Below, one piece after another: positions 617 to 20,781 of a stretch of DNA of 32,000 nt (position 1 is its first letter; each line of letters opens with the position of its first letter). The translations under genes were made by a program, and so were the position numbers. Under the pieces are notes generated by a model. It made no database searches. It was given only the letters and a program-made list of their open reading frames with translations, and had not been told where the DNA came from. Origin of the DNA: Candidatus Jordarchaeales archaeon. Lineage in GTDB: Archaea > Asgardarchaeota > Jordiarchaeia > Jordiarchaeales > Freyrarchaeaceae. The stretch lies in the NCBI GenBank assembly GCA_038858525.1, contig JAWCFL010000013.1, forward strand, positions 8,668-40,667, in the 5' to 3' direction.

Positions 617-3600
617 CTAGTTTTGTTCTCCTCCAGTACTCTCTCCGCTCTTCCCTTCTACCTCACCCTCTCCACCGCCTTCCTCAGGTTTCCCAGCTTG
701 CTCTTCTTCCTTCGGCTCCTCCTCCGCTACTTCCCTAGTTTTTCTCCTCTTCCTCGTCCTTTTTTCTGGTTGTTTTTGTTCTTCTTCTTTTTCTAGTTCT
801 TGGAGTATTGCCGCTGATATGTCTGGTGGAACCCCTAGGGTTTCGAGGAGTTTTTCTCTTTCGGCAGGAGAGGTTGCTCTCAGCTCGGCCAGTATCACCT
901 GAGCCTCGCTCTCGCTCTTGCCTATCTCGACCAGCAACGGGACAAGCTTGTCCGCCACCTCTGGCGGCACATAAACAGCTGGCCTAGGCTCAACACCTAT
1001 AAGCGACAACTCCGCTCCAAGTACGGCTGTCATGACGCTTTCCCTCGACGTTGGCTTGCCAACCTCGACTGGCAACCCCTTGCTTATCCTGTCGATCAAG
1101 TAGTCTATCCTTCTAATTATTGGAGGTATTCTAGCCCTCTGCAGGTAAACGTAGGAGGCGAATGCTGAGGATGGCACAAGCACGCTTGCAAGCAACGCCA
1201 AGAAGACCCGGTACGGCAGGTTCACTAGTGGTATGGTCCACTCCTTCACGTTAAGCAGAACAACCGTCGACGTGGACTGGTAGTATGCTTTCTCGGCTTT
1301 GACTGATACTGGCAGCGCGACGTCGGAAAGCCCTGAAACAGGGACTAGTGTGAAGTAGACGCCAGGAGAAACCTCCCATACTGGTAAGCCGAGGATCGTA
1401 ACGTTTGCCCCCGTCACCGGCCTCCCAGAGTCGTCCTTAAGCATGAAAACTAAAGGCACGAAGGGAACGTTGCTCTCAACCATGACGTATGGCCCAATAA
1501 TGAACTTACTTGACAGAGGCAGCATAACCGGCGTAAGAGTGACAGGGATCTCTGAGATGGAGAGAGGCAGCATGATCCTCTGTTCTTGGTAGTTCTGCTT
1601 AAAGGCGGTTACAGTAAAGACATAGGATCCGGGCTCTATGGGCCCTAAAGGTAGCTCGCTGAGGTTTAGAGTGGCCACGTAAACCCCTCCGCCTTCCTCA
1701 ATCATCGCTCCCGAGTACTCTGTTCCGATGATGGACCAAGTGACTATAGCGTCAGTGATGGGGTTGCCATTTGCATCCTTTAGCTCAACGGAGAAAGTTA
1801 AAGTTCTGTTGTAGATCACCGATAACCGTCCGTCCTGGAGGAACTCGGAGGAAAAATTGGCAACCGTCGGGATGGGGTTTATCACTAGCGTAATCTTAAC
1901 CGAGGTAATAGAGTAGTTCTGTGCTGTAGGAGTAACCTCGATAGTATAAACTCCACTACTTAAGTTGCCTATTACATTGGCTGGAATCATGTAGTATCCA
2001 TTCCCGGCATAGTCCATGGTTCCACTATAGGACGTGCCTAGGATCGAGTAACTCGCAACGGCGTTCGCAACAGGCATGTTGCGCCTTGTGTCATTCAAGT
2101 ACACGCTAACGTTGAATGAGGGGGGAGAGCTCCAAGTGACGTTTATGAAGGGCTGGTACTCTACGGTCACCGGCAACTCATTCACCTGCAAGTATACTGT
2201 TATCGGCACAGGGTAGGAGTAGATATCAGTGTCCAGTGGCTTCCCATAAAATCTCACGATGTATGTGTGTCCTCCAATAAGTATCGTAGTGTTTAGCGTA
2301 ACGTACCATTGCCCAATGACAGAAGTATTTTCGGTCATTGTGGTTTGCGGCACAACCAATGTACCATTAGGGTATAATATCGTGTAGTTGATCCATGAGG
2401 CATTTATGCCTATGTTTGGTCCAACCCACTCCATCCACACAGAGAAGTTTACCTCGTCACTCCAGTATACGGTGAAGAAGCTGCCGCCCTCGCACCTAAG
2501 TTGAGTTTGCCTCACGAATATCGAGCGGTCAAGCTCTACGCGTATGTCCGCCGGCCCATTTAGAGCGAGAGGCTGGCTGAGCACGCTACCATCACTCATA
2601 TTGTAGAGTATAATTTGCTCGTTCGGGTAAGCTTGCGTTGAAACGTTCACATAGAAGCTCGCGCCAGCCTTAACGTAAAGGCAAATATTAGCATAGTACA
2701 GGTCAACCGACTGGTTAACGATGTTCTGTGGGGAACCAGACGTGTAGTTTATCGTCACGTTGGCATTCTGGACGCGGCTACCCAGCTTATCGTAAACTTC
2801 AATGTAAAGCCTCGTAGCGTTAAGCACTATAGTCACCGACGACGAGTTCACCCCCGGCGTCCACTTTCCCGTCTGATTTACGTACTGGTCTCCGGGTGGA
2901 AGGTATGGTAAGGATAGGTTAGCTTGCAGGTAGTAGCCTCCTCCACTGTAGTAGAGGTGGAATGTGCACTTTCCATTCTCGTCTGTCAACTTGGACACAT
3001 TAAGTTGAGTGTAGTCTCCATCGTTGAATACGCTGACGTTAGCGTTTGGTATTGGGGCTCCTGACGGGTCTGTCACTGTTACTTCCAGCTTGTAGAAGAC
3101 GTCTTCAGGTGTCCCCGCGCTCACCGTGAGGTTTGCCTTCATGCCCTCAGCGAACGCCTGGAAAGGAGCATACCCTTGGGATCCGTTCCAAATGTATACT
3201 GCAAACTTCTCGTAGATCCACCCGCCAGCACTAAAGTCAACCACACCCCAGTATCTATCCCAGAACTCGTAGTAAGAGGTTACCCGCCAGAACACGCGGT
3301 AGTACCAGTATCCCTGCCTAACATTAGCACCGCTCACCTGTGGGGAGACAAGGTCGAATGTGCCAGCTGCCTCACGGTCACTCTGGTCCCACAGGCAGAA
3401 CCACAGAATATTACTGTACAAGTTTACCTGCTGATTGCTACTGCCGAAAGTAATGGTGGTTGGTGTTCCGTACTGGTACTTGTACGTTAGGTTTGGCATT
3501 ATCCCGGGGTTGAAGACCCACTCGTTGTTTCTGTAATCTCTCCCGCTTGCTGGGCTGTTGAACGTGGAGTTTGTTTCGCATATCCATCCCCACTTGAAGA

Positions 3601-4411
3601 ATCTATAGGTGATGTTGCAGTAAGCGTCATAGTCTCCGAGCTTGGCTCGCGTGGTGTAAGTTATGAATAGCGGCCCTGACTCGACAACTTGATGAGCCAA
3701 GGGAGCATATCTAGACGTGGTTCCGGTGCTGTAGTCGTAGTCTGGGTTCCAGTGGAAGCCCCAGTTCCCCAGGGGGTCGTTTATTGTTCTGCTCGTCCAG
3801 TATGTTCCGGATATCTTGTTGTAGCAGGCCTCTATTTTGCCGCCTCTTGCCGTGGTTGAGCAGTTGGCCCTGTAAATGCTGCTCTCGAAAGTGTAGTGTG
3901 TCCCGTTGAAGCTCCACCACACCTCGTTCGTGTATGTTTCGACTCCACTATCCGTGTCGTTGTAGTAGACGTAGTAGGTTTTCGTGGAACTAGCGGTGAG
4001 GTTGATGTAGAAGGTTAGGGTGAGAGACTTGTAGTAGCTTGTCCCATCCCAATACGTCTCATTCCATACTTGGCATGGCACTGTCAGCCAGTCGCTTCCG
4101 TCGTAGTACCGCACTCTTATGCTGTTGTTGTAGCATGTTCCGCTGCTAAAGGTGAGGTAGACGTCTACGGGCTGATCTACGTGGTCTACGTTTGACGTGT
4201 CTGTGAAGTTGACTTGGAGCCTATACCTGAAGGAGTGATTCCACCATGGCGGGTAGAACTGCTTAGGGTCAGCAGGTTGCTCGCCGCTGTTCATTGGAGG
4301 GGGGAGAGGAATTGTCGGCTGAGGGAGCGCGGGCGCTACTGCTAGTATTAACGGTAGTATTATTGCCGCCGCTAGCAGGGCGCTTAAAAGCCGCTTAGAA
4401 CGAACAGGCAT
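617..4411 (-). CDS. Large single-pass cell-surface glycoprotein (S-layer/adhesin-like) with DUF2341-like N-domain, Ig-like repeats, TM helix and ~175-aa cytoplasmic tail
   Basis: 1264-aa ORF. Signal peptide (MPVRSKRLLSALLAAAIILPL); WWNHSFRYRLQV...DQPVDV is DUF2341-like; five repeats of the form V/L-x-D-xxG-x-P-[IV]-x-[NG]A-x-V; about 39 N-X-S/T sequons counted by eye, all before the TM segment VFLALLASVLVPSSAFASYVYL; charged tail. Confidence 0.88.
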   Translation of the reverse strand: MPVRSKRLLSALLAAAIILPLILAVAPALPQPTIPLPPPMNSGEQPADPKQFYPPWWNHSFRYRLQVNFTDTSNVDHVDQPVDVYLTFSSGTCYNNSIRVRYYDGSDWLTVPCQVWNETYWDGTSYYKSLTLTFYINLTASSTKTYYVYYNDTDSGVETYTNEVWWSFNGTHYTFESSIYRANCSTTARGGKIEACYNKISGTYWTSRTINDPLGNWGFHWNPDYDYSTGTTSRYAPLAHQVVESGPLFITYTTRAKLGDYDAYCNITYRFFKWGWICETNSTFNSPASGRDYRNNEWVFNPGIMPNLTYKYQYGTPTTITFGSSNQQVNLYSNILWFCLWDQSDREAAGTFDLVSPQVSGANVRQGYWYYRVFWRVTSYYEFWDRYWGVVDFSAGGWIYEKFAVYIWNGSQGYAPFQAFAEGMKANLTVSAGTPEDVFYKLEVTVTDPSGAPIPNANVSVFNDGDYTQLNVSKLTDENGKCTFHLYYSGGGYYLQANLSLPYLPPGDQYVNQTGKWTPGVNSSSVTIVLNATRLYIEVYDKLGSRVQNANVTINYTSGSPQNIVNQSVDLYYANICLYVKAGASFYVNVSTQAYPNEQIILYNMSDGSVLSQPLALNGPADIRVELDRSIFVRQTQLRCEGGSFFTVYWSDEVNFSVWMEWVGPNIGINASWINYTILYPNGTLVVPQTTMTENTSVIGQWYVTLNTTILIGGHTYIVRFYGKPLDTDIYSYPVPITVYLQVNELPVTVEYQPFINVTWSSPPSFNVSVYLNDTRRNMPVANAVASYSILGTSYSGTMDYAGNGYYMIPANVIGNLSSGVYTIEVTPTAQNYSITSVKITLVINPIPTVANFSSEFLQDGRLSVIYNRTLTFSVELKDANGNPITDAIVTWSIIGTEYSGAMIEEGGGVYVATLNLSELPLGPIEPGSYVFTVTAFKQNYQEQRIMLPLSISEIPVTLTPVMLPLSSKFIIGPYVMVESNVPFVPLVFMLKDDSGRPVTGANVTILGLPVWEVSPGVYFTLVPVSGLSDVALPVSVKAEKAYYQSTSTVVLLNVKEWTIPLVNLPYRVFLALLASVLVPSSAFASYVYLQRARIPPIIRRIDYLIDRISKGLPVEVGKPTSRESVMTAVLGAELSLIGVEPRPAVYVPPEVADKLVPLLVEIGKSESEAQVILAELRATSPAEREKLLETLGVPPDISAAILQELEKEEEQKQPEKRTRKRRKTREVAEEEPKEEEQAGKPEEGGGEGEVEGKSGESTGGEQN

Positions 4412-5512: not shown

Positions 5513-6352
5513 TTAGCGGTATCTGAAGTTGCTTCTTAATGGTGATTCATGTCGTCTTCCTTTTTCGGGTTGTCCTCGGAATATTATTATGTCACTGATT
5601 GCTGGGAGTTTTCTGGCTATGAGGTCTAGTGTGTTGAGCATGATGTATGACATTCTTTTTGGAAGCTTGTCGAGTAGCTTCCCCCAGTGTGGAAGGCTCC
5701 AGAAGAGTGATAAGCCCTCTATGTGGTTGGCTCTTAGTGCGCCTTGCGTGTATGCTTTAAGGGTTTTGTAGTCGACTCTTAAAGTGTGGTCTTCAGGCAT
5801 GTCCCAGGGTCTTCTTTCCCCTTTCCTTAGTCCTGAAAGGCCGGCTGCGTCTATTAGTCTTGCGAGCTTGAAGCCTAGACTTTCCATGTTTGCGACGGAT
5901 ATGACTGCTTTCCCGTTTGGTTTGAGGACGCGGGCGAACTCGAGTATTGAGCGACGTGGATAGTGGAAGTGGTCTAGGGCGCCCTTGCATATGAGGGCGT
6001 CGAGGGCGTTATCTCTGAATGGCAGGCACTCGCTGGCTCCCTGAACTATGTCTGCTTCAACGCCGCAGCCCGCCACGTAGCGCTTAGCCTTCCTCACCAT
6101 TATTTTTGAGACGTCTACTCCAACCACTCTGACGCCTTGCTTCGCCATAGAGACTACTTCTATGCCTAGCCCGCATGCAACGTCAAGCGCCACATCTCTG
6201 GGCGAGGGAGAGAGAGCCCTTATGGTTCTAGGTCCCATCATTCTGAATACGAAGTCCGAGTCAGCATTGTACTCCGGGGGGATCGCTCCCTCGTCACACC
6301 ACTCGACAACCTGCTTCCTCTCGAACGTGCTCTTCAACGTGAACCCGCCCAA
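5513..6352 (-). CDS. Class I SAM-dependent methyltransferase (Methyltransf_11/UbiE-like)
   Basis: Motif I ALDVACGLG, post-I VVGVDVS, LPFRDNALD, FARVLKPNG. TTG start. Confidence 0.9.
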   Translation of the reverse strand: MGGFTLKSTFERKQVVEWCDEGAIPPEYNADSDFVFRMMGPRTIRALSPSPRDVALDVACGLGIEVVSMAKQGVRVVGVDVSKIMVRKAKRYVAGCGVEADIVQGASECLPFRDNALDALICKGALDHFHYPRRSILEFARVLKPNGKAVISVANMESLGFKLARLIDAAGLSGLRKGERRPWDMPEDHTLRVDYKTLKAYTQGALRANHIEGLSLFWSLPHWGKLLDKLPKRMSYIMLNTLDLIARKLPAISDIIIFRGQPEKGRRHESPLRSNFRYR

Positions 6353-6413
6353 ATGATGCTACGGAGCGATAAGGGAAAACTGGCATATACTTTTTTCCGT
6401 GGCCGACGTCTGG

Positions 6414-7139
6414 TTAAGGCTTCCTGAATACTGCGGTTACGTTCATTCCCAGGTATGATGAGAGGGGGGACTCTTCTATTTTGGCCCAGTTCCTCTCGGA
6501 CAGCTTCAGTAGTCCTTTAGGTATGGGGAGCCAGCTGTGGAGTTCTCGAAGGCGGGTTGCCGAGATAGGCCACGAACCCCACCCGGTTATTTTTACAAGT
6601 TTCAGGTTGTAACGTTTAGTTATCATTTTCATGTCGAAGGGGCTGTAGCTTCGCTCCCACCCCATGGGCCAGCAACCTATGGCGACTAGGAAGGACTTGT
6701 AGATATGGTATAGAGAGTATTTTTGAGGGGCGTCGAGTATTATGAATCCTCCACGCTTAGTGACGCGGATCTTTTCGCGTATCAGCCTGTCTGGGTTCTT
6801 GAAGTGCTCTATTAGTCCCTGAGAGAATACCAGGTCAAAGGACTCGTCCCTGAATGGAAGCGTTTCCCCGTCCGCCTGCTGAACGTTCACCGTGCTCCAC
6901 TTGGACACTATGATGCTGGAGGTTGCATAATCCACGGCGCACACGTGAGCGCCAAGCTTTGCGAGGAATCCGCTGTCAACCCCGCTTCCTGCTCCAACCT
7001 CCAGCACCCGTACCCCCTTCAGGTTGCGGTTGAAGAGGGAGACTATCTGTCTCAGAATGTGGGTGTGTGGCTTATCATTTGGCTTGGCTAGTAGAAAGAA
7101 GAAGGCCCAATAGTCCTTGAGGCGACGCCTGTAGCTTAG
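6414..7139 (-). CDS. Class I SAM-dependent methyltransferase; start codon unresolved
   Basis: Motif I VLEVGAGSG, LPFRDESFDLVFSQGLIEHF, RVTKRGG. The ORF-track start (GTG 7007) sits inside motif I. The frame continues upstream with no ATG/GTG/TTG (LSYRRRLKDYWAFFF...NLKGVRV). Start placed tentatively at CTA 7139-7137, overlapping the upstream stop. Confidence 0.8.
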   Translation of the reverse strand, partial: LSYRRRLKDYWAFFFLLAKPNDKPHTHILRQIVSLFNRNLKGVRVLEVGAGSGVDSGFLAKLGAHVCAVDYATSSIIVSKWSTVNVQQADGETLPFRDESFDLVFSQGLIEHFKNPDRLIREKIRVTKRGGFIILDAPQKYSLYHIYKSFLVAIGCWPMGWERSYSPFDMKMITKRYNLKLVKITGWGSWPISATRLRELHSWLPIPKGLLKLSERNWAKIEESPLSSYLGMNVTAVFRKP

Positions 7140-8755
7140 CTGCGCTGGCTCTTCTGCGCCTTGACTTGTGGAGCGTATTTTTTCCTTAGCTCCTCGTTGG
7201 TCGTCCAGCTCCAGACTGCCACCCCATCCTCCACTCTGTAGCCTAGCAGTCCCCTCTCCATGTAGTACTTTATGAATGATTGTACGAGTTCTGGCGGGAA
7301 CTTTCCTTCTAGCCGGGCGACCTCAAAGAGCCTTTCGGTCAACCGGAGGACTGGATCGGCTCCGTCGTATGGCACTCTGCCGTGCTGCTCTATTACGTCC
7401 CATTTAAGTAGGTGCCATGCGAGTCTCTGCCTGCGCCTGACGTTAAGCGACTCCACTTCCTCTGGTGGTAGGAGTCCTTGGTCTGCCATCTTGAACTTTC
7501 TCCCCAACTCCCGCATTATCGCCCTGTTGAAGTCTCCAACCACCCTGTTCAGGTATTCCGCGCTCACGGCGTGCGTGTGCGCAACAGCCCTGTTAGCGTC
7601 ATACTTAGACCAGTCGTCCGTCAGTATGACTATTCCGAGCTCGTTGGCTCTCTCCCTTACTTCTGACCCGGGGAATGGTGCTAGAATGTGGAAGCCGTAG
7701 AACGGGCCTAGCTCCTCCGCGAACTTCATCGTTTGCTGTATGGTCTCCTTGGTCTCACCTGGCAATCCCAGTATGAATGAGGAGAGGACTCCTATGCCGA
7801 GCTCCTTCGTCATTTTAACCGCTTCCCTGATCTCCTCCAAGGTTATCCTCTTCTTGCACGTGTCAAGAATCTCCTGGTTTCCGCTTTCCGTGCCGAACAT
7901 TATAAAGTGGCATCCCGCCTCCTTCATCTTCTCTAGAAGTTCCCTAGTCACCGTGTCAACCCTAGCATTGGCGCACCACTTGAACTTGAGCCCCCTGCTG
8001 ATTATCTCGTCACATATAGCGAAGGCATGTTTGTGGTTTAGTGTGAACGTGTCGTCTTCAAATATCACCTCGTCAAACCCGTATCCCAGGACTTCCTCGA
8101 CTTCGTCCACGACGAGCTTCGGGTTCCTTAGCCTAACCCTCCTCCCCATCATCTTTGAGCCAACACAAAATATGCACCTGTGAGGGCAACCCCTCCCCGT
8201 TATGAGGCTACACCCTGAGTGATAAGCCATGTACTTTGAGAGGGGGAGGAGGTGGCGTGCTGGGAAGGGGAGCTCGTCGAGGTTCTCTATGAGTTTCCTG
8301 TCTCTGTTCCGGACTATCTCGCCGTCCTCCCTGTAGGTTATCCCATCAATGTCCTTGAAATCTTTCCCCTTAACTATGTCCAAGGTGGTGTATTCGCCTT
8401 CCCCCCTAACCACCACGTCTATCCACGGAGCCTCCTCGAGCGTCCGGACGTCGCTGAAAGTTACGTGAGGACCTCCGGCTACCGTTAAAATGTCCTCGTC
8501 CACCTTCTTCACGAGCCGGAGTATCTTTGACGCGGCAGGAAAGCTCATGGTAACAGAGTTGGCACCAACGACGTCCGGCTTGTAATCCTCAACCTTCCTG
8601 ATGACCTTCTCGTCCGAGTACTTTGAAACAAGGAGGTCGAGCACCTCAACTTCGAAACCGTTTTTCTCCAAGACAGCTGCAATATAAGTTAAACCTAGAG
8701 GAATCGTGGGGCACTCAGAAAACATGTAAGGCGTGTTTATCAGAAGAGTTCTCAT
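7136..8755 (-). CDS. Cobalamin (B12)-binding radical SAM protein (class B)
   Basis: N-terminal B12-binding domain (PLGLTYIAAVL, VAGGPHVT), SRGC-type motif ITGRGCPHRCIFC (CxxxCxxC), FEDDTF, FGTESG, FILGLPGET. Start ATG 8755 has RBS GAGGGTGAGG; the ORF track starts at 8803. Confidence 0.93.
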   Translation of the reverse strand: MRTLLINTPYMFSECPTIPLGLTYIAAVLEKNGFEVEVLDLLVSKYSDEKVIRKVEDYKPDVVGANSVTMSFPAASKILRLVKKVDEDILTVAGGPHVTFSDVRTLEEAPWIDVVVRGEGEYTTLDIVKGKDFKDIDGITYREDGEIVRNRDRKLIENLDELPFPARHLLPLSKYMAYHSGCSLITGRGCPHRCIFCVGSKMMGRRVRLRNPKLVVDEVEEVLGYGFDEVIFEDDTFTLNHKHAFAICDEIISRGLKFKWCANARVDTVTRELLEKMKEAGCHFIMFGTESGNQEILDTCKKRITLEEIREAVKMTKELGIGVLSSFILGLPGETKETIQQTMKFAEELGPFYGFHILAPFPGSEVRERANELGIVILTDDWSKYDANRAVAHTHAVSAEYLNRVVGDFNRAIMRELGRKFKMADQGLLPPEEVESLNVRRRQRLAWHLLKWDVIEQHGRVPYDGADPVLRLTERLFEVARLEGKFPPELVQSFIKYYMERGLLGYRVEDGVAVWSWTTNEELRKKYAPQVKAQKSQRS

Positions 8756-8777
8756 GTCCTCACCCTCTTCTAGGGGG

Positions 8778-9521
8778 TTAGACACTTCTATGATTGCATT
8801 CATTTAAAACGTTTGCCGTCGACTTCTCTCTTTTGAGGTAGAATACCACGCTCTTCGGAAAGACGTAATTAAAAAACTTCTCTATTATCCTTATGAGTTT
8901 AACTCTTGGGGAGTATATTAGGAGAAGCCTCCATAGGGCAGGTATGATTGCTTTGTCGTTGTCGAGCCCCGCTAGGCACTTGAGAAGCCAGTATACCGTG
9001 TGGAGGGCGTGCTCGTAGCATATTCTCACCGGGCGTAACCCTCCTTCCCTGAGCTTATCCAGCAACCTATCCTCCTTGTAGATTTTTATGTGTCCTCCGG
9101 GACTTCTAAAGTACTTGGCTGAGAGTCTGCCGTATAGCCTCTCAGACGCCCTCGTAGGGACGCTTACGGCGACACACCCCTTGCCGTCTATGACGCGCGC
9201 CAGTTCACCTATGGCTTCCCTGTCCTCCTTTATGTGCTCCAGTACCTCTGTGCATATGACCTTGGTGAATGAGTTCTCCTTGAATGGCAACCTGCGCACG
9301 TCCCCTCGCACGACCTCAGCGTACGCCTTCAACTCGCCCTTATGGTTCATCAGCCTTACGACGAAGAGAACCTTTAGAAGGTCGATCAACGAGGTGTCTA
9401 AAGCCACCAAGCGGCACGGCATTTTAGCTATTGTTAGGGCGTGCCTTCCGTCGCCGCATCCCGCGTCAAGTATCACGTCTTTTTCTCTTACCCTGAAAAT
9501 GTCAAGGTTTATGGTTAGCAT
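8778..9521 (-). CDS. Class I SAM-dependent methyltransferase
   Basis: ILDAGCGDGRH motif I, LPFKENSF, CTEVLEHI. ATG 9521 has RBS GGAGG and overlaps the end of the upstream GT4. Confidence 0.9.
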   Translation of the reverse strand: MLTINLDIFRVREKDVILDAGCGDGRHALTIAKMPCRLVALDTSLIDLLKVLFVVRLMNHKGELKAYAEVVRGDVRRLPFKENSFTKVICTEVLEHIKEDREAIGELARVIDGKGCVAVSVPTRASERLYGRLSAKYFRSPGGHIKIYKEDRLLDKLREGGLRPVRICYEHALHTVYWLLKCLAGLDNDKAIIPALWRLLLIYSPRVKLIRIIEKFFNYVFPKSVVFYLKREKSTANVLNECNHRSV

Positions 9522-10746
9522 CCGCAACCTCCATGTAGACTTTCTCCAGCTCTCTGGCTACTTTCTCCCAGGTGAAGAGGCTTTCAACTCTCTTTCTTCC
9601 GTTCATGCCCATCTGCCTCCTCAACTCCTTGTCCTCTAGGAGCCTTGCCGCGGCGTGGGCTAGCTCCTTCCAGTTGCCGGGCTCTACGAGTATCCCTGTG
9701 ACGCCGTTCTCAACAACCTCTGGGAGCGCACCAACTCTAAATCCTACGAGCGGCTTCCCGCAGGCCATCGCTTCAGCCGCCACGAAGCAGAAACCCTCGA
9801 ACATCGATGAAAGCATGACTAGGTCCGCGCTAGCATACTGCCGGGCAAGCTCCTCTATCGTGAGGAAGCCCGTAAAGGAGACGTCATCCTGCAAACAATA
9901 CTCTTTTATGAATGGCTGGGCAATTCCTTCCTCCTTCCACCTGTCAACTATGGTGAGTTTCACGTTGAGGCCCAACTCCTCTTTCATGTACTTAACTGCT
10001 CTAAGTAGGAGCCCTATGCCCTTAACCCTGTTGTCCGTGTTCCCCACGAAGAGGAGCCGGTAGTAGTCCCCATCAATGCTACCTTCATCCATCGGCCTGA
10101 AAACGTCCACGTCCACGCCGTTATGTATCACACTTATTTTCTCCCTTGGAACCTTGAAGTGCTTCGTGATGCTTCTGGCTGAAGTTTGTGAGACGGTTAC
10201 CACTCTGTCCATGAAGTTGGCGACGATCTTTTGCATGAACATGGGGTAGAATATGATCTGCTTGAACCGCTCCTTAGTTGTCCTCGCAAGCCTCATCGCC
10301 ATTATCCTGTCTATGGGTAGAGGATGATGAATCGTTGCCACGACAGGGACACCTAAAGCCTTCATGAGTAGTAAGCCGTATCCTAAGCACTGGTTGTCGT
10401 GGATCACGTCGAACCTTTCCTTCTTCATGAGCTCCTTAACCTTGAAGAAGGCCCTTATGCTGAAGCTGAACATCTCGGGAAAGACGCCTATGTTTGCCAG
10501 CGTATACTCGTATGCTGAGAGGAGCGATAGGTTCTCGGCGGTCAGCCGCTCGCCCGTGAACTCGCTAAACTGGGGAGTTTTAATTTTGTGTATGGTTGCC
10601 CACTCCATCTCGAATGGGTAGGGTGGACCAACGATCACGTGGACGTCGTGCCCAAGCTTTGCCAGCTCACGGGAAACATAGTAGATGTATACTCCCTGCC
10701 CGCCACAACACATGTTGCCTCTATAGCTGAGAAGGCAGATCTTCAT
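9502..10746 (-). CDS. Glycosyltransferase family 4 (GT-B, retaining)
   Basis: GGQGVYIYY, DVIHDNQ, IHNGVD, SMFEGFCFVAAEAMACGKP (EX7E). ATGA overlap with the upstream GT. Confidence 0.92.
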   Translation of the reverse strand: MKICLLSYRGNMCCGGQGVYIYYVSRELAKLGHDVHVIVGPPYPFEMEWATIHKIKTPQFSEFTGERLTAENLSLLSAYEYTLANIGVFPEMFSFSIRAFFKVKELMKKERFDVIHDNQCLGYGLLLMKALGVPVVATIHHPLPIDRIMAMRLARTTKERFKQIIFYPMFMQKIVANFMDRVVTVSQTSARSITKHFKVPREKISVIHNGVDVDVFRPMDEGSIDGDYYRLLFVGNTDNRVKGIGLLLRAVKYMKEELGLNVKLTIVDRWKEEGIAQPFIKEYCLQDDVSFTGFLTIEELARQYASADLVMLSSMFEGFCFVAAEAMACGKPLVGFRVGALPEVVENGVTGILVEPGNWKELAHAAARLLEDKELRRQMGMNGRKRVESLFTWEKVARELEKVYMEVADANHKP

Positions 10747-12011
10747 CCTCGTCTCTCCATAACTTCTTTGAAAATGTTAAGATACTTTTTCACGGCTTTT
10801 TTAGCGTTAAACTTCTCCTCGGCGGTTCTCCTAGCGGCGAGCCCCATGCGCTTCCTCAACGTCTTGTTTGAGAGGAGCCGTATCACCCTGTCAGCGAACG
10901 CCTCGATGTCTCCGGGGGGGACGAGGAAGCCGTTGATTCCATCCTCTATTTGGACGCTGACTCCTCCCACATTGTAGGCTACGACGGGTTTGCCTGACGC
11001 CATCGCCTCAGTTATGGCTAAGCCGAAACCCTCCATTTTCGATGGGAGAACCACCACGTCAGCCATCTTATAAGCTTTAGGCAAGAATTCGGGGGACAGG
11101 TAACCCGTGAATATTACGTCTTCCCTCAAGCCTAGCTCGTCAACCAAGTTGAACAGTTTCTCCTTTCTCTCATCTCTGATACCCAGAACGTTCTCGCTCA
11201 GGGAGCCGTTCCCGACGCACACCAAGCTAGCCCACCTTCGCGCCTCCTTAATTATAGAAAAGGCCCTTAAAAGGTCGTCGTGGCTTTTAACAGGGTCTAT
11301 GCGGGCGACGCAAAGGACCACTTCGCTGTCAGCCGGTATCCCCAGCTCCTCCTTAAACCGCTCTCCCTCAGAGCTGGGAATGTTGAAGCGGTCAACATCG
11401 ACAAACGGATGCACGCACCTAATTTTCCGCCTTGGAACACCGAGGCGTTCAGCGTGCCTAGCATACATCTGCGTTGAGAAAATCACGGTGTCGCACTTGT
11501 TCAGGCGCTTAGCCACCATTCCTCCCAGCCTTTCGCCCATTTTCTCAGTGAATGGCACATGCCACGTGTAAACTAGAGGGGCAGATGCCCGCAGGAAGTC
11601 TGGCACAAAGAAGACCTGCCAGTCATGAATATTAACGACGTCGAAGGGGTCTGACTCGTGGAGCTCGTCGATCTTCGAGGCGACAAGCTTGGAAAAACAC
11701 TGGAAGGTGTCATATCCCTCCCATCCCCACTCCCCCTCAGCCTTCAAGCCGTGAATCTGCTCGTAAAGGTTCTCCTTGAAGAAGGCGTATCTCCCCCACT
11801 CAGTAGTGCTGTTAAAACCCACCCTGTGAACCTTAACGCCCTCAATAACATCGAAACTTGGAATCGGTGGCTTCCCCAAGTGCACCGCAGTCACGTCGAC
11901 GCCACACCCGATGAGCTCTTGGGTAAGGTAGTAGAGGTAGTAGGAAACACCGCCCGCAAACGGGTAAAACGATTGACTTCCAATGCAAACCCTAAACGTT
12001 CCGTCCAGCAT
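10743..12011 (-). CDS. Glycosyltransferase family 4 (TreT/OtsA-like motifs)
   Basis: AGGVSYY, VNIHDWQ...YTWHVPF, VARIDPVKSH, SKMEGFGLAITEAMASGKP. Confidence 0.9.
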   Translation of the reverse strand: MLDGTFRVCIGSQSFYPFAGGVSYYLYYLTQELIGCGVDVTAVHLGKPPIPSFDVIEGVKVHRVGFNSTTEWGRYAFFKENLYEQIHGLKAEGEWGWEGYDTFQCFSKLVASKIDELHESDPFDVVNIHDWQVFFVPDFLRASAPLVYTWHVPFTEKMGERLGGMVAKRLNKCDTVIFSTQMYARHAERLGVPRRKIRCVHPFVDVDRFNIPSSEGERFKEELGIPADSEVVLCVARIDPVKSHDDLLRAFSIIKEARRWASLVCVGNGSLSENVLGIRDERKEKLFNLVDELGLREDVIFTGYLSPEFLPKAYKMADVVVLPSKMEGFGLAITEAMASGKPVVAYNVGGVSVQIEDGINGFLVPPGDIEAFADRVIRLLSNKTLRKRMGLAARRTAEEKFNAKKAVKKYLNIFKEVMERRG

Positions 12012-17997: not shown

Positions 17998-18570
17998 TTA
18001 AACTTGAGACTGCACTCGGTTACCTTTGGCGGCTTTCATGAAGCGTTTTTTAATCCAGTACGGCGAGAGGGGTATTATCGGCACGTCGGCGTTTCCTTTC
18101 TCCACTTTCGCAATTATAACCGAGGTTTTACCTTTCGACTCATTAAACGCGCTCTTCAATTCCTCAGGGCTTTTCACTTCGAGGACGTTATCTATTCCTG
18201 CCGCCCTAGCCATCTTCGCTAAGCTGGTTTTTCCAGCAGTGTAGCTTGGCTGGCCACCTGTGGTTGAGTAGGACTCGTTGTCCAGCACTATGAGGGTCAG
18301 GTTTGGAGGGGACTGGTTGGCTATTGTAACCAGAGAGCCGAGGTTCATGAGGAGCGAGCCGTCGCCGTCAAAGACCACTACTCTTTTCTTCGTTGAAAGC
18401 GCCAATCCTAGCCCAATTGATGACGCCAGACCCATTGACCCCAGCATGTAGAAGTTCTCATCTCTGTCCCTCACACTGTAAAGCTCACGGGAAGGATAAC
18501 CTATATTGCATACAACCAGTTCACCGTCAAGCTCCTCCATAACACACCTAATCGCTTCTATCCTCTTCAC
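17998..18570 (-). CDS. comE: Sulfopyruvate decarboxylase subunit beta (ThDP-binding)
   Basis: VCNIGYPSRELY..RDRDENFYMLGSMGLASSIGLGLAL and ThDP motif DGDGSLLMN...LDNESYSTTGGQ. Confidence 0.85.
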   Translation of the reverse strand: MKRIEAIRCVMEELDGELVVCNIGYPSRELYSVRDRDENFYMLGSMGLASSIGLGLALSTKKRVVVFDGDGSLLMNLGSLVTIANQSPPNLTLIVLDNESYSTTGGQPSYTAGKTSLAKMARAAGIDNVLEVKSPEELKSAFNESKGKTSVIIAKVEKGNADVPIIPLSPYWIKKRFMKAAKGNRVQSQV

Positions 18571-19060
18571 CCAGCTCCCTCCTCACGATGACTGCGACAG
18601 GGATTTCCTCTCTCCAAGCACGCTTAGCCGCACCAACCACGTGCTCCTCCAGCTGTCGAAGGGACTCAGGAACGTAGAAGGGTATGCAGGCGGCTTTAAG
18701 TAGGGGAATAGTCGCCTCGCCCATAGGGATCTGAGCAACTATTTTCTCTCCTCTCCCACCCCTTTGGGATATGAGCATCAGTAAGGGGATGCCGAAGGTC
18801 TTATTAAGGGAGAGAAGGGCGTTCATGCAGTTTCCGAGACCACTGTTCTGCATTAGGATGACGGGGCGCTTCCCGCCGAGGTAGGCTCCGGCCGCAACTC
18901 CAACACCCTCCTCCTCTCGCGTGACCGGGACATGCATTATGCCGACGCTTTCCAGCTTCTCAAGCACCTCGGCGAACAACGTGTCCGGAACAGAGACGGC
19001 GAAGTCCACTCCGGCCTCCACTAAGGAGGACAACAAGACACGAGCAAGGGAGGACGGCAT
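18548..19060 (-). CDS. comD: Sulfopyruvate decarboxylase subunit alpha
   Basis: VTREEEGVGVAAGAYLGG, LMQNSGLGN, ISQRG...EKIVAQIPMG. Overlaps comE. Confidence 0.83.
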   Translation of the reverse strand: MPSSLARVLLSSLVEAGVDFAVSVPDTLFAEVLEKLESVGIMHVPVTREEEGVGVAAGAYLGGKRPVILMQNSGLGNCMNALLSLNKTFGIPLLMLISQRGGRGEKIVAQIPMGEATIPLLKAACIPFYVPESLRQLEEHVVGAAKRAWREEIPVAVIVRRELGEEDRSD

Positions 19061-19073
19061 CTCAAACCCTCCA

Positions 19074-19691
19074 TCACTTTGAGGGAGGTTTGCTTTTTAA
19101 CTTGACGGAGCCCACTACAAACCGGTATGCTGCTGTAAGATGCGAGGCAACACAACAGAAAACTAAGCCTAACAAGGGGGCCTGCCAGAAAAAAGGATAG
19201 ATGAGCGAGGAAGCTGAAAGTATAAGGAGCCTTTCTGACCTGGCTGCGAACCCCACATCCAGCGGCACGCCCACCGCCTCCCCTCTAGCTCTAACATAGC
19301 TCACCATGATGAAGCCCGCCACCGCCAGTGCCACCCAAACACTGACGGGAAAAACGAGGCTGAAGCTCTCAGCCTCTTTCCAGAATGCGAAGCCTAGGAG
19401 AACGGCGACGTCCGAGTACCTGTCACTCATCGAGTCGAGCAATCCTCCCCGAAGCGTTACCCTGCCAGTCAGCCGGGCGAGGGCGCCATCAACACCATCA
19501 AGGAAGCCTGAAGTGAAAACGAGTAAGCCGTAAAGGACAGGTAAGCCCAGCGCTAGGAGGAGCGAGGCTATTATGGACACAGCTAGGGATGCGAGCGTTA
19601 TGTGGTTTGGGCTTAAACCAGCCTTAGCGCAAATGGAAGCCACCCGGTAGACAGCTGGGCGGAAAAACCGCCTAACTCTATATTTGCTCAA
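19074..19691 (-). CDS. CDP-alcohol phosphatidyltransferase (AIPS/PgsA/DIPPS family)
   Basis: Signature LDGVDGALARLTGRVTLRGGLLDSMSDRYSD (DxxDGxxAR...GxxxDxxxD), SYVRARGE, ARSERLLIL; multi-TM. Confidence 0.9.
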   Translation of the reverse strand: MSKYRVRRFFRPAVYRVASICAKAGLSPNHITLASLAVSIIASLLLALGLPVLYGLLVFTSGFLDGVDGALARLTGRVTLRGGLLDSMSDRYSDVAVLLGFAFWKEAESFSLVFPVSVWVALAVAGFIMVSYVRARGEAVGVPLDVGFAARSERLLILSASSLIYPFFWQAPLLGLVFCCVASHLTAAYRFVVGSVKLKSKPPSK

Positions 19692-20667
19692 CTCCCTCGT
19701 CCCTCACAGGAAATGCTACGCCGCCAAAGAACACCGCCCGCTTCACAACACCAGTAATATTCCCGCCGCCGAACGCCACGACATCCGACGCAATAGCCCC
19801 TTTGCATGAGACGCAACCGGAAAGCGAAACGTTCGGCCCTAGGACTGAACGCTCGATGCGGCCATCCAACAACAAGACGGGACCTACCAATGTTGACTTG
19901 TAGTCAGCGGTGCCCATACCGCTCCTAACTTCTCCTGGAGGCACATATAATCCCTCCTCAGGCGTTAAGCCAGCTTTAAGAGCATGCCTGTTCGCGTCAA
20001 GGACGTCTGAAAGCGTGTCAACGTCAAACCACACTCTTCCATGGAAGTCGACGAAGCCCAGCTTACCCCCCTCGTCAACGTATAGTTTAAGGGCTGAGAC
20101 TACGCTTCCCTCTCCTCTCATCAACGACCTTCTAAGGTGAGTGAAGAATGAGGAGTCCAGGGCTACAAGCCCAACGCACACTCTTCTATTTTCGTCTCCT
20201 TCACCTATCCTGAGAACCTCCCCGCACTTACCTCCACTAGTGGATATAGCTGTCCCCCTTCCCTCAGACCTCCCTGCTGCGATAAGCGGAACCCCGAGCT
20301 TCTTCACAGCTTTAATAAGTCCCGAGGATATTTCGTGGTCGAAGACTATGTCGGCAGGGCACAGTAAGAACTCGCCTGACACGTATTCTTCGGCCGCGAG
20401 GAGGGAGTAGCCTGCACCCTTCAAGTAATCCCTTGCCTGGATGCATTCAACACTCAAGCCTCGCCACTTCTCCTTGATGTGGCGAGCGACAAGTCCACCC
20501 ATGTGACCGACGACGACCACGAATCGCTCCACACGGGATTTCAGAAGGGAGCAGATCACCCAGTCGATGAGGGGTCTGCCAGCCACAGGAATGAGGGGCT
20601 TGGGGCATAGGCGTGAGAGCGCGCCCATGCGAGCTCCTACACCTGCAGCCAAAATCACAGCGTCCAT
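19678..20667 (-). CDS. Nucleotidyltransferase (NTP_transferase; IPCT/choline-phosphate cytidylyltransferase-like) with short C-terminal beta-helix-like extension
   Basis: AVILAAGVGARMG, PKPL, WFDVDTLSD, GPVLL...VLGPNVSL. 14-nt overlap with the downstream gene. Confidence 0.85.
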   Translation of the reverse strand: MDAVILAAGVGARMGALSRLCPKPLIPVAGRPLIDWVICSLLKSRVERFVVVVGHMGGLVARHIKEKWRGLSVECIQARDYLKGAGYSLLAAEEYVSGEFLLCPADIVFDHEISSGLIKAVKKLGVPLIAAGRSEGRGTAISTSGGKCGEVLRIGEGDENRRVCVGLVALDSSFFTHLRRSLMRGEGSVVSALKLYVDEGGKLGFVDFHGRVWFDVDTLSDVLDANRHALKAGLTPEEGLYVPPGEVRSGMGTADYKSTLVGPVLLLDGRIERSVLGPNVSLSGCVSCKGAIASDVVAFGGGNITGVVKRAVFFGGVAFPVRDEGVEQI

Positions 20668-20781
20668 CAAGTACACCAGAAACCTATCGAGGATGCTAAA
20701 CTTAAAAGGTTAACCAAAAAACCGATGAGGAGCCGGAAATTTTTAGAAGAAACGTTCATCATCCAGTTCTAATCGGAGAGG

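Follow-up and report, generated by a model that had tools for sequence, protein, structure and literature searches.

Six tightly packed genes of one orientation, at positions 5513-12011 on the minus strand of a 32,000-nucleotide stretch of an archaeal contig (JAWCFL010000013.1, positions 8,668 to 40,667; the whole stretch is referred to below as the window), raise the question of what is made by a gene set that encodes only sugar-transferring and S-adenosylmethionine (SAM)-dependent enzymes. In the direction of transcription, their products are two glycosyltransferases of family 4 (GT4a and GT4b), a class I SAM methyltransferase (MT1), a B12-binding radical SAM enzyme (rSAM), and two more class I SAM methyltransferases (MT2 and MT3). 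The source of the window is an Asgard archaeon of the class Jordarchaeia, and its closest protein relatives are found in hot-spring metagenome-assembled genomes (MAGs) of Candidatus Jordarchaeum and 'Freyarchaeota'. The original prediction, made from the DNA sequence, treated the six genes as one glycosylation-plus-methylation pathway with an undescribed product. Results of our analysis support this view and indicate that the product is probably a polymethylated oligo- or polysaccharide, made by a cytoplasmic pathway that is related to the pathway of the actinobacterial 3-O-methylmannose polysaccharide (MMP) but includes an extra radical, probably C-methylating, step.

The similarity to the MMP pathway is most evident in GT4b, a protein of 414 aa (9502-10746, minus strand). 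Its best solved relative is 7QSG, which it matches over the full length with 243 bits and about 38% identity (counted on the printed alignment), while the second-best PDB chain reaches only 97 bits. The 7QSG structure is that of ManT of Mycolicibacterium hassiacum, an alpha-1,4-mannosyltransferase that elongates MMP as a processive enzyme and requires tri- or tetramannoside acceptors (PMC9883506). The Glu-x7-Glu (EX7E) motif is visible in GT4b, and equivalents of ManT residues Lys240, Glu313, and Glu321 are kept. In a maximum-likelihood tree of GT4 proteins, GT4b, the glycosyltransferases of the bacterial gene sets described below, and a ManT orthologue of Nonomuraea form one clade (88/93 support), apart from GT4a and from another GT4 encoded in the window. 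By these comparisons, GT4b is assigned by us as a ManT-type GT4.

The gene of MT1 (8778-9521, minus strand; 247 aa from ATG 9521) follows that of GT4b with a 20-nt overlap, and its product contains a Methyltransf_11 domain (Pfam, 4.8e-15). In the MMP cluster the order of genes is ManT, pMeT3, MmpH, MeT1 (PMC9883506). Similarly, in the Nonomuraea record the gene of the ManT orthologue (484 bits to 7QSG) is followed by that of an MT1 homologue and then by that of an MmpH homologue. Our comparison was made with this Nonomuraea gene at the pMeT3 position: MT1 is 35% identical to its product over 240 aa (144 bits), while MT2 and MT3 match it with only about 50 bits. Moreover, MT1 is 36-40% identical to the methyltransferases encoded directly downstream of GT4b homologues in five bacterial loci (L005, L064-66, and L079). 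The alignments establish the homology of MT1 to the methyltransferase at the pMeT3 position of the actinobacterial MMP cluster. We assign GT4b and MT1 as a ManT-pMeT3 pair, whose genes are same-order neighbours in Actinomycetota, Chloroflexota, a deltaproteobacterial MAG, and Asgard archaea.

The bacterial versions of this gene set differ in their composition. In three Chloroflexota-type contigs (L064-66), homologues of GT4b (50-51% identity) and MT1 (37-40%) are accompanied by a second GT4b paralogue, GT4b' (45-49%), and by an MT3 homologue (36-39%), with no GT4a. In a Dehalococcoidia-type contig (L079), an MT3 homologue (37%) overlaps the start of an rSAM homologue (56%), and a pair of GT4b (46%) and MT1 (36%) homologues lies 3.6 kb away, so that homologues of GT4b, MT1, MT3, and rSAM are all encoded within 8 kb. 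In the deltaproteobacterial MAG (L005), genes of a GT4b-like protein (37%), an MT1-like protein (38%), and a protein of 390 aa are convergent with the gene of an rSAM homologue (45%). The 390-aa protein is a homologue of MmpH (7QSJ, 303 bits), and each of the four genes of this island is the only copy of its kind in the 4.1-Mb genome, in unrelated flanks. In a complete Dehalococcoidia genome (L062), a GT4b-like gene is located 43 nt upstream of an rSAM homologue (54%). The lack of co-conservation that was to refute the original prediction was not observed: the whole cluster is syntenic in the window's family, and four of its six gene families (GT4b, MT1, MT3, and rSAM) also co-cluster in bacteria. 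In the literature library that was searched, we found no report of MMP-type genes outside Actinobacteria.

Upstream of the Chloroflexota cassettes there are always genes of a NAD kinase, a GNAT acetyltransferase, and a NUDIX protein whose N-domain is of the NDP-sugar-hydrolase type, and downstream of them come the genes of fumarase and succinate dehydrogenase. Of these, the acetyltransferase and the NUDIX protein might be part of the pathway, for acylation and donor control. A 392-aa protein encoded beside the L066 cassette turned out to be unrelated to MmpH and to the proteins encoded beside the Asgard rSAM arrays described below.

The phylogenetic spread of the cassette bears on the nature of the acceptor, for which the original prediction named a lipid, a surface glycan, or a solute, with emphasis on a membrane-lipid head group. 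According to the lipid variant, a membrane lipid of the archaeon receives its sugar from the two GT4 enzymes, this sugar is C-methylated or ring-contracted by rSAM in the manner of HpnJ or Cds, and the methyltransferases then O-methylate it. Some GT4 enzymes do act on lipids, and PimA is among the weak PDB matches of GT4b, but with 45 bits as compared to the 243 bits of ManT. Chloroflexota, the deltaproteobacterial MAG, and Actinomycetota have membrane lipids unlike those of archaea, and sets of GT4b-MT1(-MT3-rSAM) type are present in all of them. The sharing of one cassette by ester-lipid bacteria and ether-lipid archaea speaks against a lipid as the acceptor. In addition, the L005 version includes the polysaccharide hydrolase MmpH, and none of the cassette versions seen contains a lipid-synthesis gene, a flippase, or a transporter. 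A lipid head group is thus very unlikely to be the product, and the analogies to Cds, GrsAB, HpnJ, and HpnP that were used in its favour are countered by the ManT-like GT4b, the MT1 of the pMeT3 position, and the MmpH of one bacterial version. Among the three types of acceptors named, a solute fits best.

GT4a, a predicted retaining GT4 of 422 aa (10743-12011, minus strand), points to a solute as well. Its Pfam domains are Glycos_transf_1 (1.5e-47) and Glyco_transf_4, and TreT_GT1 is matched right at the cut-off. In every Jordarchaeia locus seen, the gene of a GT4a orthologue (57-90% identity) immediately precedes that of GT4b, and the closest non-Asgard relatives of GT4a are archaeal (36-39% identity). 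Several of these archaeal relatives are fused to HAD/S6PP-type sugar-phosphate phosphatases, and in the case of one further relative a Trehalose_PPase gene is located two genes away. The fusion of a glycosyltransferase with a phosphatase is an architecture typical of two-step small-glycoside makers. Because the relatives of GT4a are fused to sugar-phosphate phosphatases, their architecture suggests that GT4a may make a small glycoside primer. The lipid variant is further weakened by these relatives, which are synthases of the compatible-solute type.

The fusions of GT4a relatives with phosphatases (about 650 aa), or a Trehalose_PPase gene nearby, were seen in the loci L078 (4158-6119) and L077 (6001-10232), and in L078 the fusion gene adjoins genes of a TreT-like glycosyltransferase and a phosphomutase. 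Taken as a set, these genes look like an undescribed archaeal compatible-solute pathway. Look-alikes of GT4a in the ESM Atlas provided no information on the substrate.

The solute-type relatives of GT4a raise the question whether the product is a polymer at all. If GT4a and GT4b acted once each, the product would be a small methylated glycoside, namely a di- or trisaccharide or a heteroside serving as a compatible solute or a small natural product. This would agree with the phosphatase fusions and the nearby Trehalose_PPase gene, which are hallmarks of compatible-solute pathways, with the hot-spring habitat of the host, and with the results of our search of the window's genome, in which no recycling hydrolase of MmpH type was found. 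However, the closest characterised relative of GT4b is the processive ManT, whose acceptors are tri- or tetramannosides, the L005 version carries the polymer-cleaving MmpH, and the Chloroflexota cassettes encode two GT4b paralogues and no GT4a. On balance, a small glycoside is an unlikely end product, and elongation to a methylated oligo- or polysaccharide remains the reading that we prefer.

One of the enzymes added to those of the MMP cluster is rSAM (7136-8755, minus strand; 539 aa from ATG 8755). An alternative upstream start, ATG 8803, would give a protein of 555 aa. We took the ATG at residue 17 of the longest open reading frame as the start, because the relatives are called at 539 aa and the alignments of homologues begin there, and this leaves a gap of 22 nt to MT1. 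The protein has the class B radical SAM architecture, with an N-terminal B12-binding domain (PF02310, 2.6e-26, residues 33-140) and a radical SAM core (PF04055, 3.9e-29) in which the CxxxCxxC motif reads CPHRCIFC at residue 206; its cobalamin binding is a prediction.

The analogy to HpnJ in the lipid variant has some basis in profile scores, as HpnJ (TIGR03471) is the top NCBIfam model for rSAM. Nevertheless, the score of 248.6 bits is less than half of the cut-off of 577.6, and other models, such as BchE (219 bits) and ApyD (200 bits), score similarly; a lipid-related model, TIGR04072, gave 151 bits at a cut-off of 360. No curated cut-off of any NCBIfam model was reached by rSAM, in agreement with the original prediction, in which a placement in a characterised clade with an unrelated substrate was to speak against the pathway. 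Among solved proteins, the best matches are AprD4 (96 bits), which itself does not bind cobalamin, and QCMT, the glutamine C-methyltransferase of methyl-coenzyme M reductase (85 bits). Neither the PDB matches nor the ESM Atlas look-alikes of rSAM provided information on its substrate.

In a FastTree phylogeny of 104 rows, rSAM falls inside a clade of Asgard, Dehalococcoidia, and Desulfobacterota proteins (100 support), whose members share a conserved C-terminal region, about 130 residues long, that is peculiar to them. Copies embedded in the cluster make up a separate subclade next to the paralogues encoded in tandem arrays of Freyarchaeum and Lokiarchaeia. In the literature library that was searched, nothing was found on this clade. 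The 120 best relatives of rSAM are all of 498-561 aa, with no fusion of rSAM and a methyltransferase (about 790 aa) among them. A GT4b homologue is usual in genomes with a member of this clade (Jordarchaeia, L005, L007, L062, L064, and L079, which is a small sample), while three genomes with more distant rSAM homologues have no GT4b homologue. The singleton rSAM homologues of L004 and L007 sit among housekeeping genes.

The tandem arrays were found in Freyarchaeum (L060, 3489-11599) and in a Lokiarchaeia MAG (L063, 10001-20719). They comprise 4-5 paralogues that are 49-60% identical to rSAM and adjoin a conserved set of genes for a stand-alone PEP-utilizers protein, a PF23213/DUF7064 protein, and proteins of 384-390 aa and 219 aa of no known function. 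In the window's genome, the rSAM family is single-copy. In L001, the locus of the closest species (about 6690-6701; G004:C45:8081-9715), a TAG in the rSAM frame takes the place of the window's CAG, three codons ahead of the TGA. Recoding of stop codons has been reported in Jordarchaeia (PMC9723677). The TAG in L001 may simply be an earlier stop.

Taken together, the pathway may be pictured as follows. GT4a would make a small glycoside that serves as a primer with a blocked reducing end and replaces the MmpH-generated fragments (in the MMP pathway) or the glucosylglycerate (in the pathway of methylglucose lipopolysaccharide, MGLP) of mycobacteria. GT4b would extend this primer with alpha-1,4-linked hexose, where both the linkage and mannose as the sugar are assumed by analogy. 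MT1 would O-methylate each added residue, by analogy at position 3, and MT2 and MT3 would O-methylate further positions or the ends of the chains. The putatively cobalamin-dependent rSAM would modify the glycan radically, most likely by C-methylation of an unactivated sugar or methoxy carbon, with a rearrangement as an alternative. C-methylation is preferred by us because it is the commonest chemistry of cobalamin-dependent radical SAM enzymes.

This scheme can be compared to several known systems. With the MMP cluster it shares the ManT-type GT4 gene immediately followed by that of a homologous class I methyltransferase, soluble enzymes with no export genes, and, in the related L005 cassette, MmpH. 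The differences concern the host, which is an Asgard archaeon, and the composition of the operon, which also encodes a B12 radical SAM enzyme, a GT4a of the solute-synthase type, and two methyltransferases beyond MT1. The best NCBIfam model for GT4b is glgA_Coryne, which we take to be the family of Rv3032; the score of 132 bits is well under its cut-off of 302. With the MGLP pathway, in which the Rv3032-type alpha-1,4-glucosyltransferase functions, the proposed pathway would share the start from a small glycoside made by a solute-type synthase, as assumed for GT4a, and several distinct O-methylations. However, neither an acyltransferase nor a GpgS/GpgP homologue was identified in our analysis, and we know of no radical SAM step in the MGLP pathway. 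In GenK, GenD1, MoeK5, and HpnJ, as in rSAM, a B12-binding domain is combined with a radical SAM core, and the genes are clustered with those of glycosyltransferases and SAM methyltransferases. The window enzyme differs from them in being under every equivalog cut-off, in belonging to a clade without a characterised member, and in its proposed substrate, a methylated glycan and not an aminoglycoside or a hopanoid.

Several observations weigh against an MMP-related pathway, at least in part. The identity of GT4b to ManT is only about 38%, and ManT Asp293, which contacts the guanine of GDP-mannose, is replaced by Ile in GT4b, so that the donor recognition site of ManT (Leu291 and Asp293) is not retained and the sugar may not be mannose. 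At the same position, the glycosyltransferases of the bacterial cassettes have Gly, Val, Thr, or Ser, and Asp is present only in the actinobacterial (Nonomuraea) sequence. None of the three methyltransferases matches a PDB chain of the MMP pathway at E <= 1e-4, nor is a chain that could be identified as MeT1 among their matches. A search of the window's genome (92.7% complete) with the L005 homologue of MmpH as a query yielded no match. The GT4b-like gene beside the rSAM homologue in L062 is N-terminally truncated, and the L004 genome encodes an rSAM of the clade and no GT4b homologue at E <= 1e-40. As the top profiles of rSAM, HpnJ and BchE, are not those of methyltransferases, its C-methylating function is a guess. 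The accepted role of MMP concerns fatty acyl-CoA, which has no obvious archaeal counterpart. Finally, both the pathway and its product are predictions from sequences, and the chain may be short, in which case a small methylated glycoside would result in place of a polymer.

Within Jordarchaeia, the six genes are present in the same order in L001 (79-91% amino acid identity), in L057-59 (about 86% for rSAM and GT4b), and in L048 plus L002 (67-87%). This synteny alone says little, because at such distances the flanks are syntenic too. A survey of 11 species genomes of the class is more informative as to the core of the cassette: GT4b and MT2 are encoded in 10 of them, and the genome without them is 73% complete. 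The rSAM gene adjoins the cassette only in the window's family (f1, Jordarchaeaceae). In the sister family (Freyarchaeum type, L067-69), the cassette encodes GT4a (57-58%), GT4b (61-63%), MT1 (49-50%), and MT2 (49%), without rSAM and MT3; the complete Freyarchaeum genome has its rSAM homologues in a tandem array, at a distance of 1.6 Mb from the cassette, and the MT3 homologue of the Freyarchaeum type (47-52%) is also encoded elsewhere in the genome. Since the sister-family cassette is devoid of both genes and their homologues lie elsewhere, the distribution indicates that the ancestral Jordarchaeia cassette was GT4a-GT4b-MT1-MT2 and that only in the window's family were rSAM and MT3 added to it. 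The neighbours of the Freyarchaeum MT3 homologue, amino-acid permeases, are uninformative as to its function.

MT3 (5513-6352, minus strand; Methyltransf_11, 1.5e-21) is of 279 aa if read from TTG 6352, while 272 aa is the length called for its relatives. Its full-length alignments show 36-39% identity to the product of the fourth gene of the Chloroflexota cassette (L064-66) and to the L079 methyltransferase whose gene overlaps the rSAM start. MT2 (6414-7139, minus strand; Methyltransf_11, 1e-20), whose orthologues (49-51%) are encoded by the fourth gene of the Freyarchaeum-type four-gene cassette, is of about 241 aa if read from 7139, where it has no canonical start. The general layout described in the original prediction was confirmed, including the ATGA start/stop overlap of GT4a and GT4b at 10743-10746, the 20-nt overlap, the 22-nt gap, and the gap of 61 nt between MT2 and MT3. 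The 4-nt overlap of rSAM and MT2 at 7136-7139, by contrast, is not an ordinary start/stop overlap, as the codon 7139-7137 is CTA.

Upstream of GTG 7007, which itself lies inside SAM motif I, the MT2 frame contains no ATG, GTG, or TTG. Freyarchaeum orthologues of MT2 align from residue 7-8 of the extended reading, the N-terminal 44 codons are conserved, and the codon changes between the window and L001 in this region are mostly synonymous; the conservation in orthologues and the mostly synonymous changes together argue that the stretch upstream of GTG 7007 is translated. An assembly error can be dismissed, because three independent DNA studies agree with the window sequence and show no indel, and an RNA-library contig, as well as DNA contigs, span the junction. 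Translation of MT2 via non-canonical initiation, frameshifting, or read-through is possible. The arrangement varies among relatives. In the window (7007-7322, minus strand) and in L001, the MT2 frame is the -1 frame of rSAM and is open into the rSAM 3' end. In L057-59 (L057, 11600-11700), a 1-nt insertion in a T run places the MT2 body in the rSAM frame with a lone TAA between them. In L002 (genus g2), a spacer is present and MT2 starts with GTG. As a route to MT2, we also weighed a conserved -1 frameshift at an A6 run that lies in the 3' end of rSAM, and discarded it, since L001 and L057 lack the run.

The six-gene layout was read from the list of open reading frames and directly from the DNA, and a Pfam profile search backs every domain call. 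GT4a and GT4b each contain Glyco_transf_4 and Glycos_transf_1, the domains of the GT-B fold, and each methyltransferase contains Methyltransf_11/25, which agrees with the predicted set of two GT4 enzymes, one B12 radical SAM enzyme, and three SAM methyltransferases. The observation that the cluster is without a scaffold synthase, a flippase, or a transporter was also correct. None of the six proteins has a transmembrane segment, and all of them look soluble. The missing scaffold synthase is explained by the glycosyltransferases, which would themselves build the scaffold. Contigs from an RNA library extend over five of the six genes and cross the rSAM/MT2 and MT1/GT4b junctions; this is weak support for operon expression, because DNA carry-over is possible in such libraries. 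The operon stretches without coverage by these contigs have no evidential meaning.

The genes around the cluster were considered as well. Downstream of it, at 617-4411 (minus strand), a surface protein of 1264 aa is encoded, with a signal peptide, dozens of N-x-S/T sequons, Big_1 and CarboxypepD_reg domains, a C-terminal transmembrane segment as an anchor, and a long charged cytoplasmic tail. The 1.1 kb between its gene and MT3 contains no open reading frame of at least 80 aa. Methylated sugars are known in archaeal S-layer glycans, and the cluster might build or decorate an N- or O-glycan of this protein. The adjacency is seen in the window, L001, and L057-59, and weak NCBIfam matches to Agl16 and PglJ were obtained. 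Yet the Agl16 score is 70-77 bits as compared to the cut-off of 575, and the adjacency is confined to the window's genus, with the surface-protein gene having its own AT-rich upstream region. The Freyarchaeum-type and bacterial cassettes sit among unrelated housekeeping genes, and no dolichol-phosphate glycosyltransferase, flippase, or AglB is encoded in or near the cluster. We regard a role in surface glycosylation as highly doubtful.

On the other side, 6 kb away, lies an operon with a CDP-alcohol phosphatidyltransferase gene, which could be taken in favour of a lipid product. However, unrelated genes of differing orientation lie between it and the cluster, and the L067 and L069 cassettes have no such operon nearby. 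This four-gene unit (17998-20676, minus strand) encodes a split thiamine pyrophosphate-dependent decarboxylase (TPP_enzyme_N and TPP_enzyme_C, of ComDE or phosphonopyruvate-decarboxylase type), the CDP-alcohol phosphatidyltransferase, and an NTP transferase, with synteny kept in L057 as well. A head group or a solute of the phosphono or sulfono type could be its product.

Polymethylated polysaccharides (MMP and MGLP) are seen as a peculiarity of mycobacteria and related actinobacteria and are linked to fatty-acid metabolism. What is new here is that a cassette resembling that of MMP is present in Archaea and in bacterial phyla other than Actinomycetota, and that it is extended by a glycosyltransferase of solute type, a B12 radical SAM enzyme, and two additional methyltransferases. 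The occurrence of a cassette of the ManT/pMeT3 type in a class of Asgard archaea, in Chloroflexota, and in a deltaproteobacterial MAG implies a far wider class of molecules with a more general role, for example in handling hydrophobic molecules or in adapting to temperature. Tentatively, we propose that Jordarchaeia and Dehalococcoidia make an intracellular polymethylated polysaccharide, and that some lineages modify this polymer radically, by C-methylation or otherwise, to a new hydrophobic, helix-forming glycan; in this full form the proposal is possible rather than likely. If it is true, the rSAM clade, including the tandem arrays of Freyarchaeum and Lokiarchaeia, would be a family of glycan-modifying radical enzymes. 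The repeated recruitment of rSAM would then provide the first concrete candidate substrate for a large orphan enzyme family and hint at a sugar modification that is not yet known.

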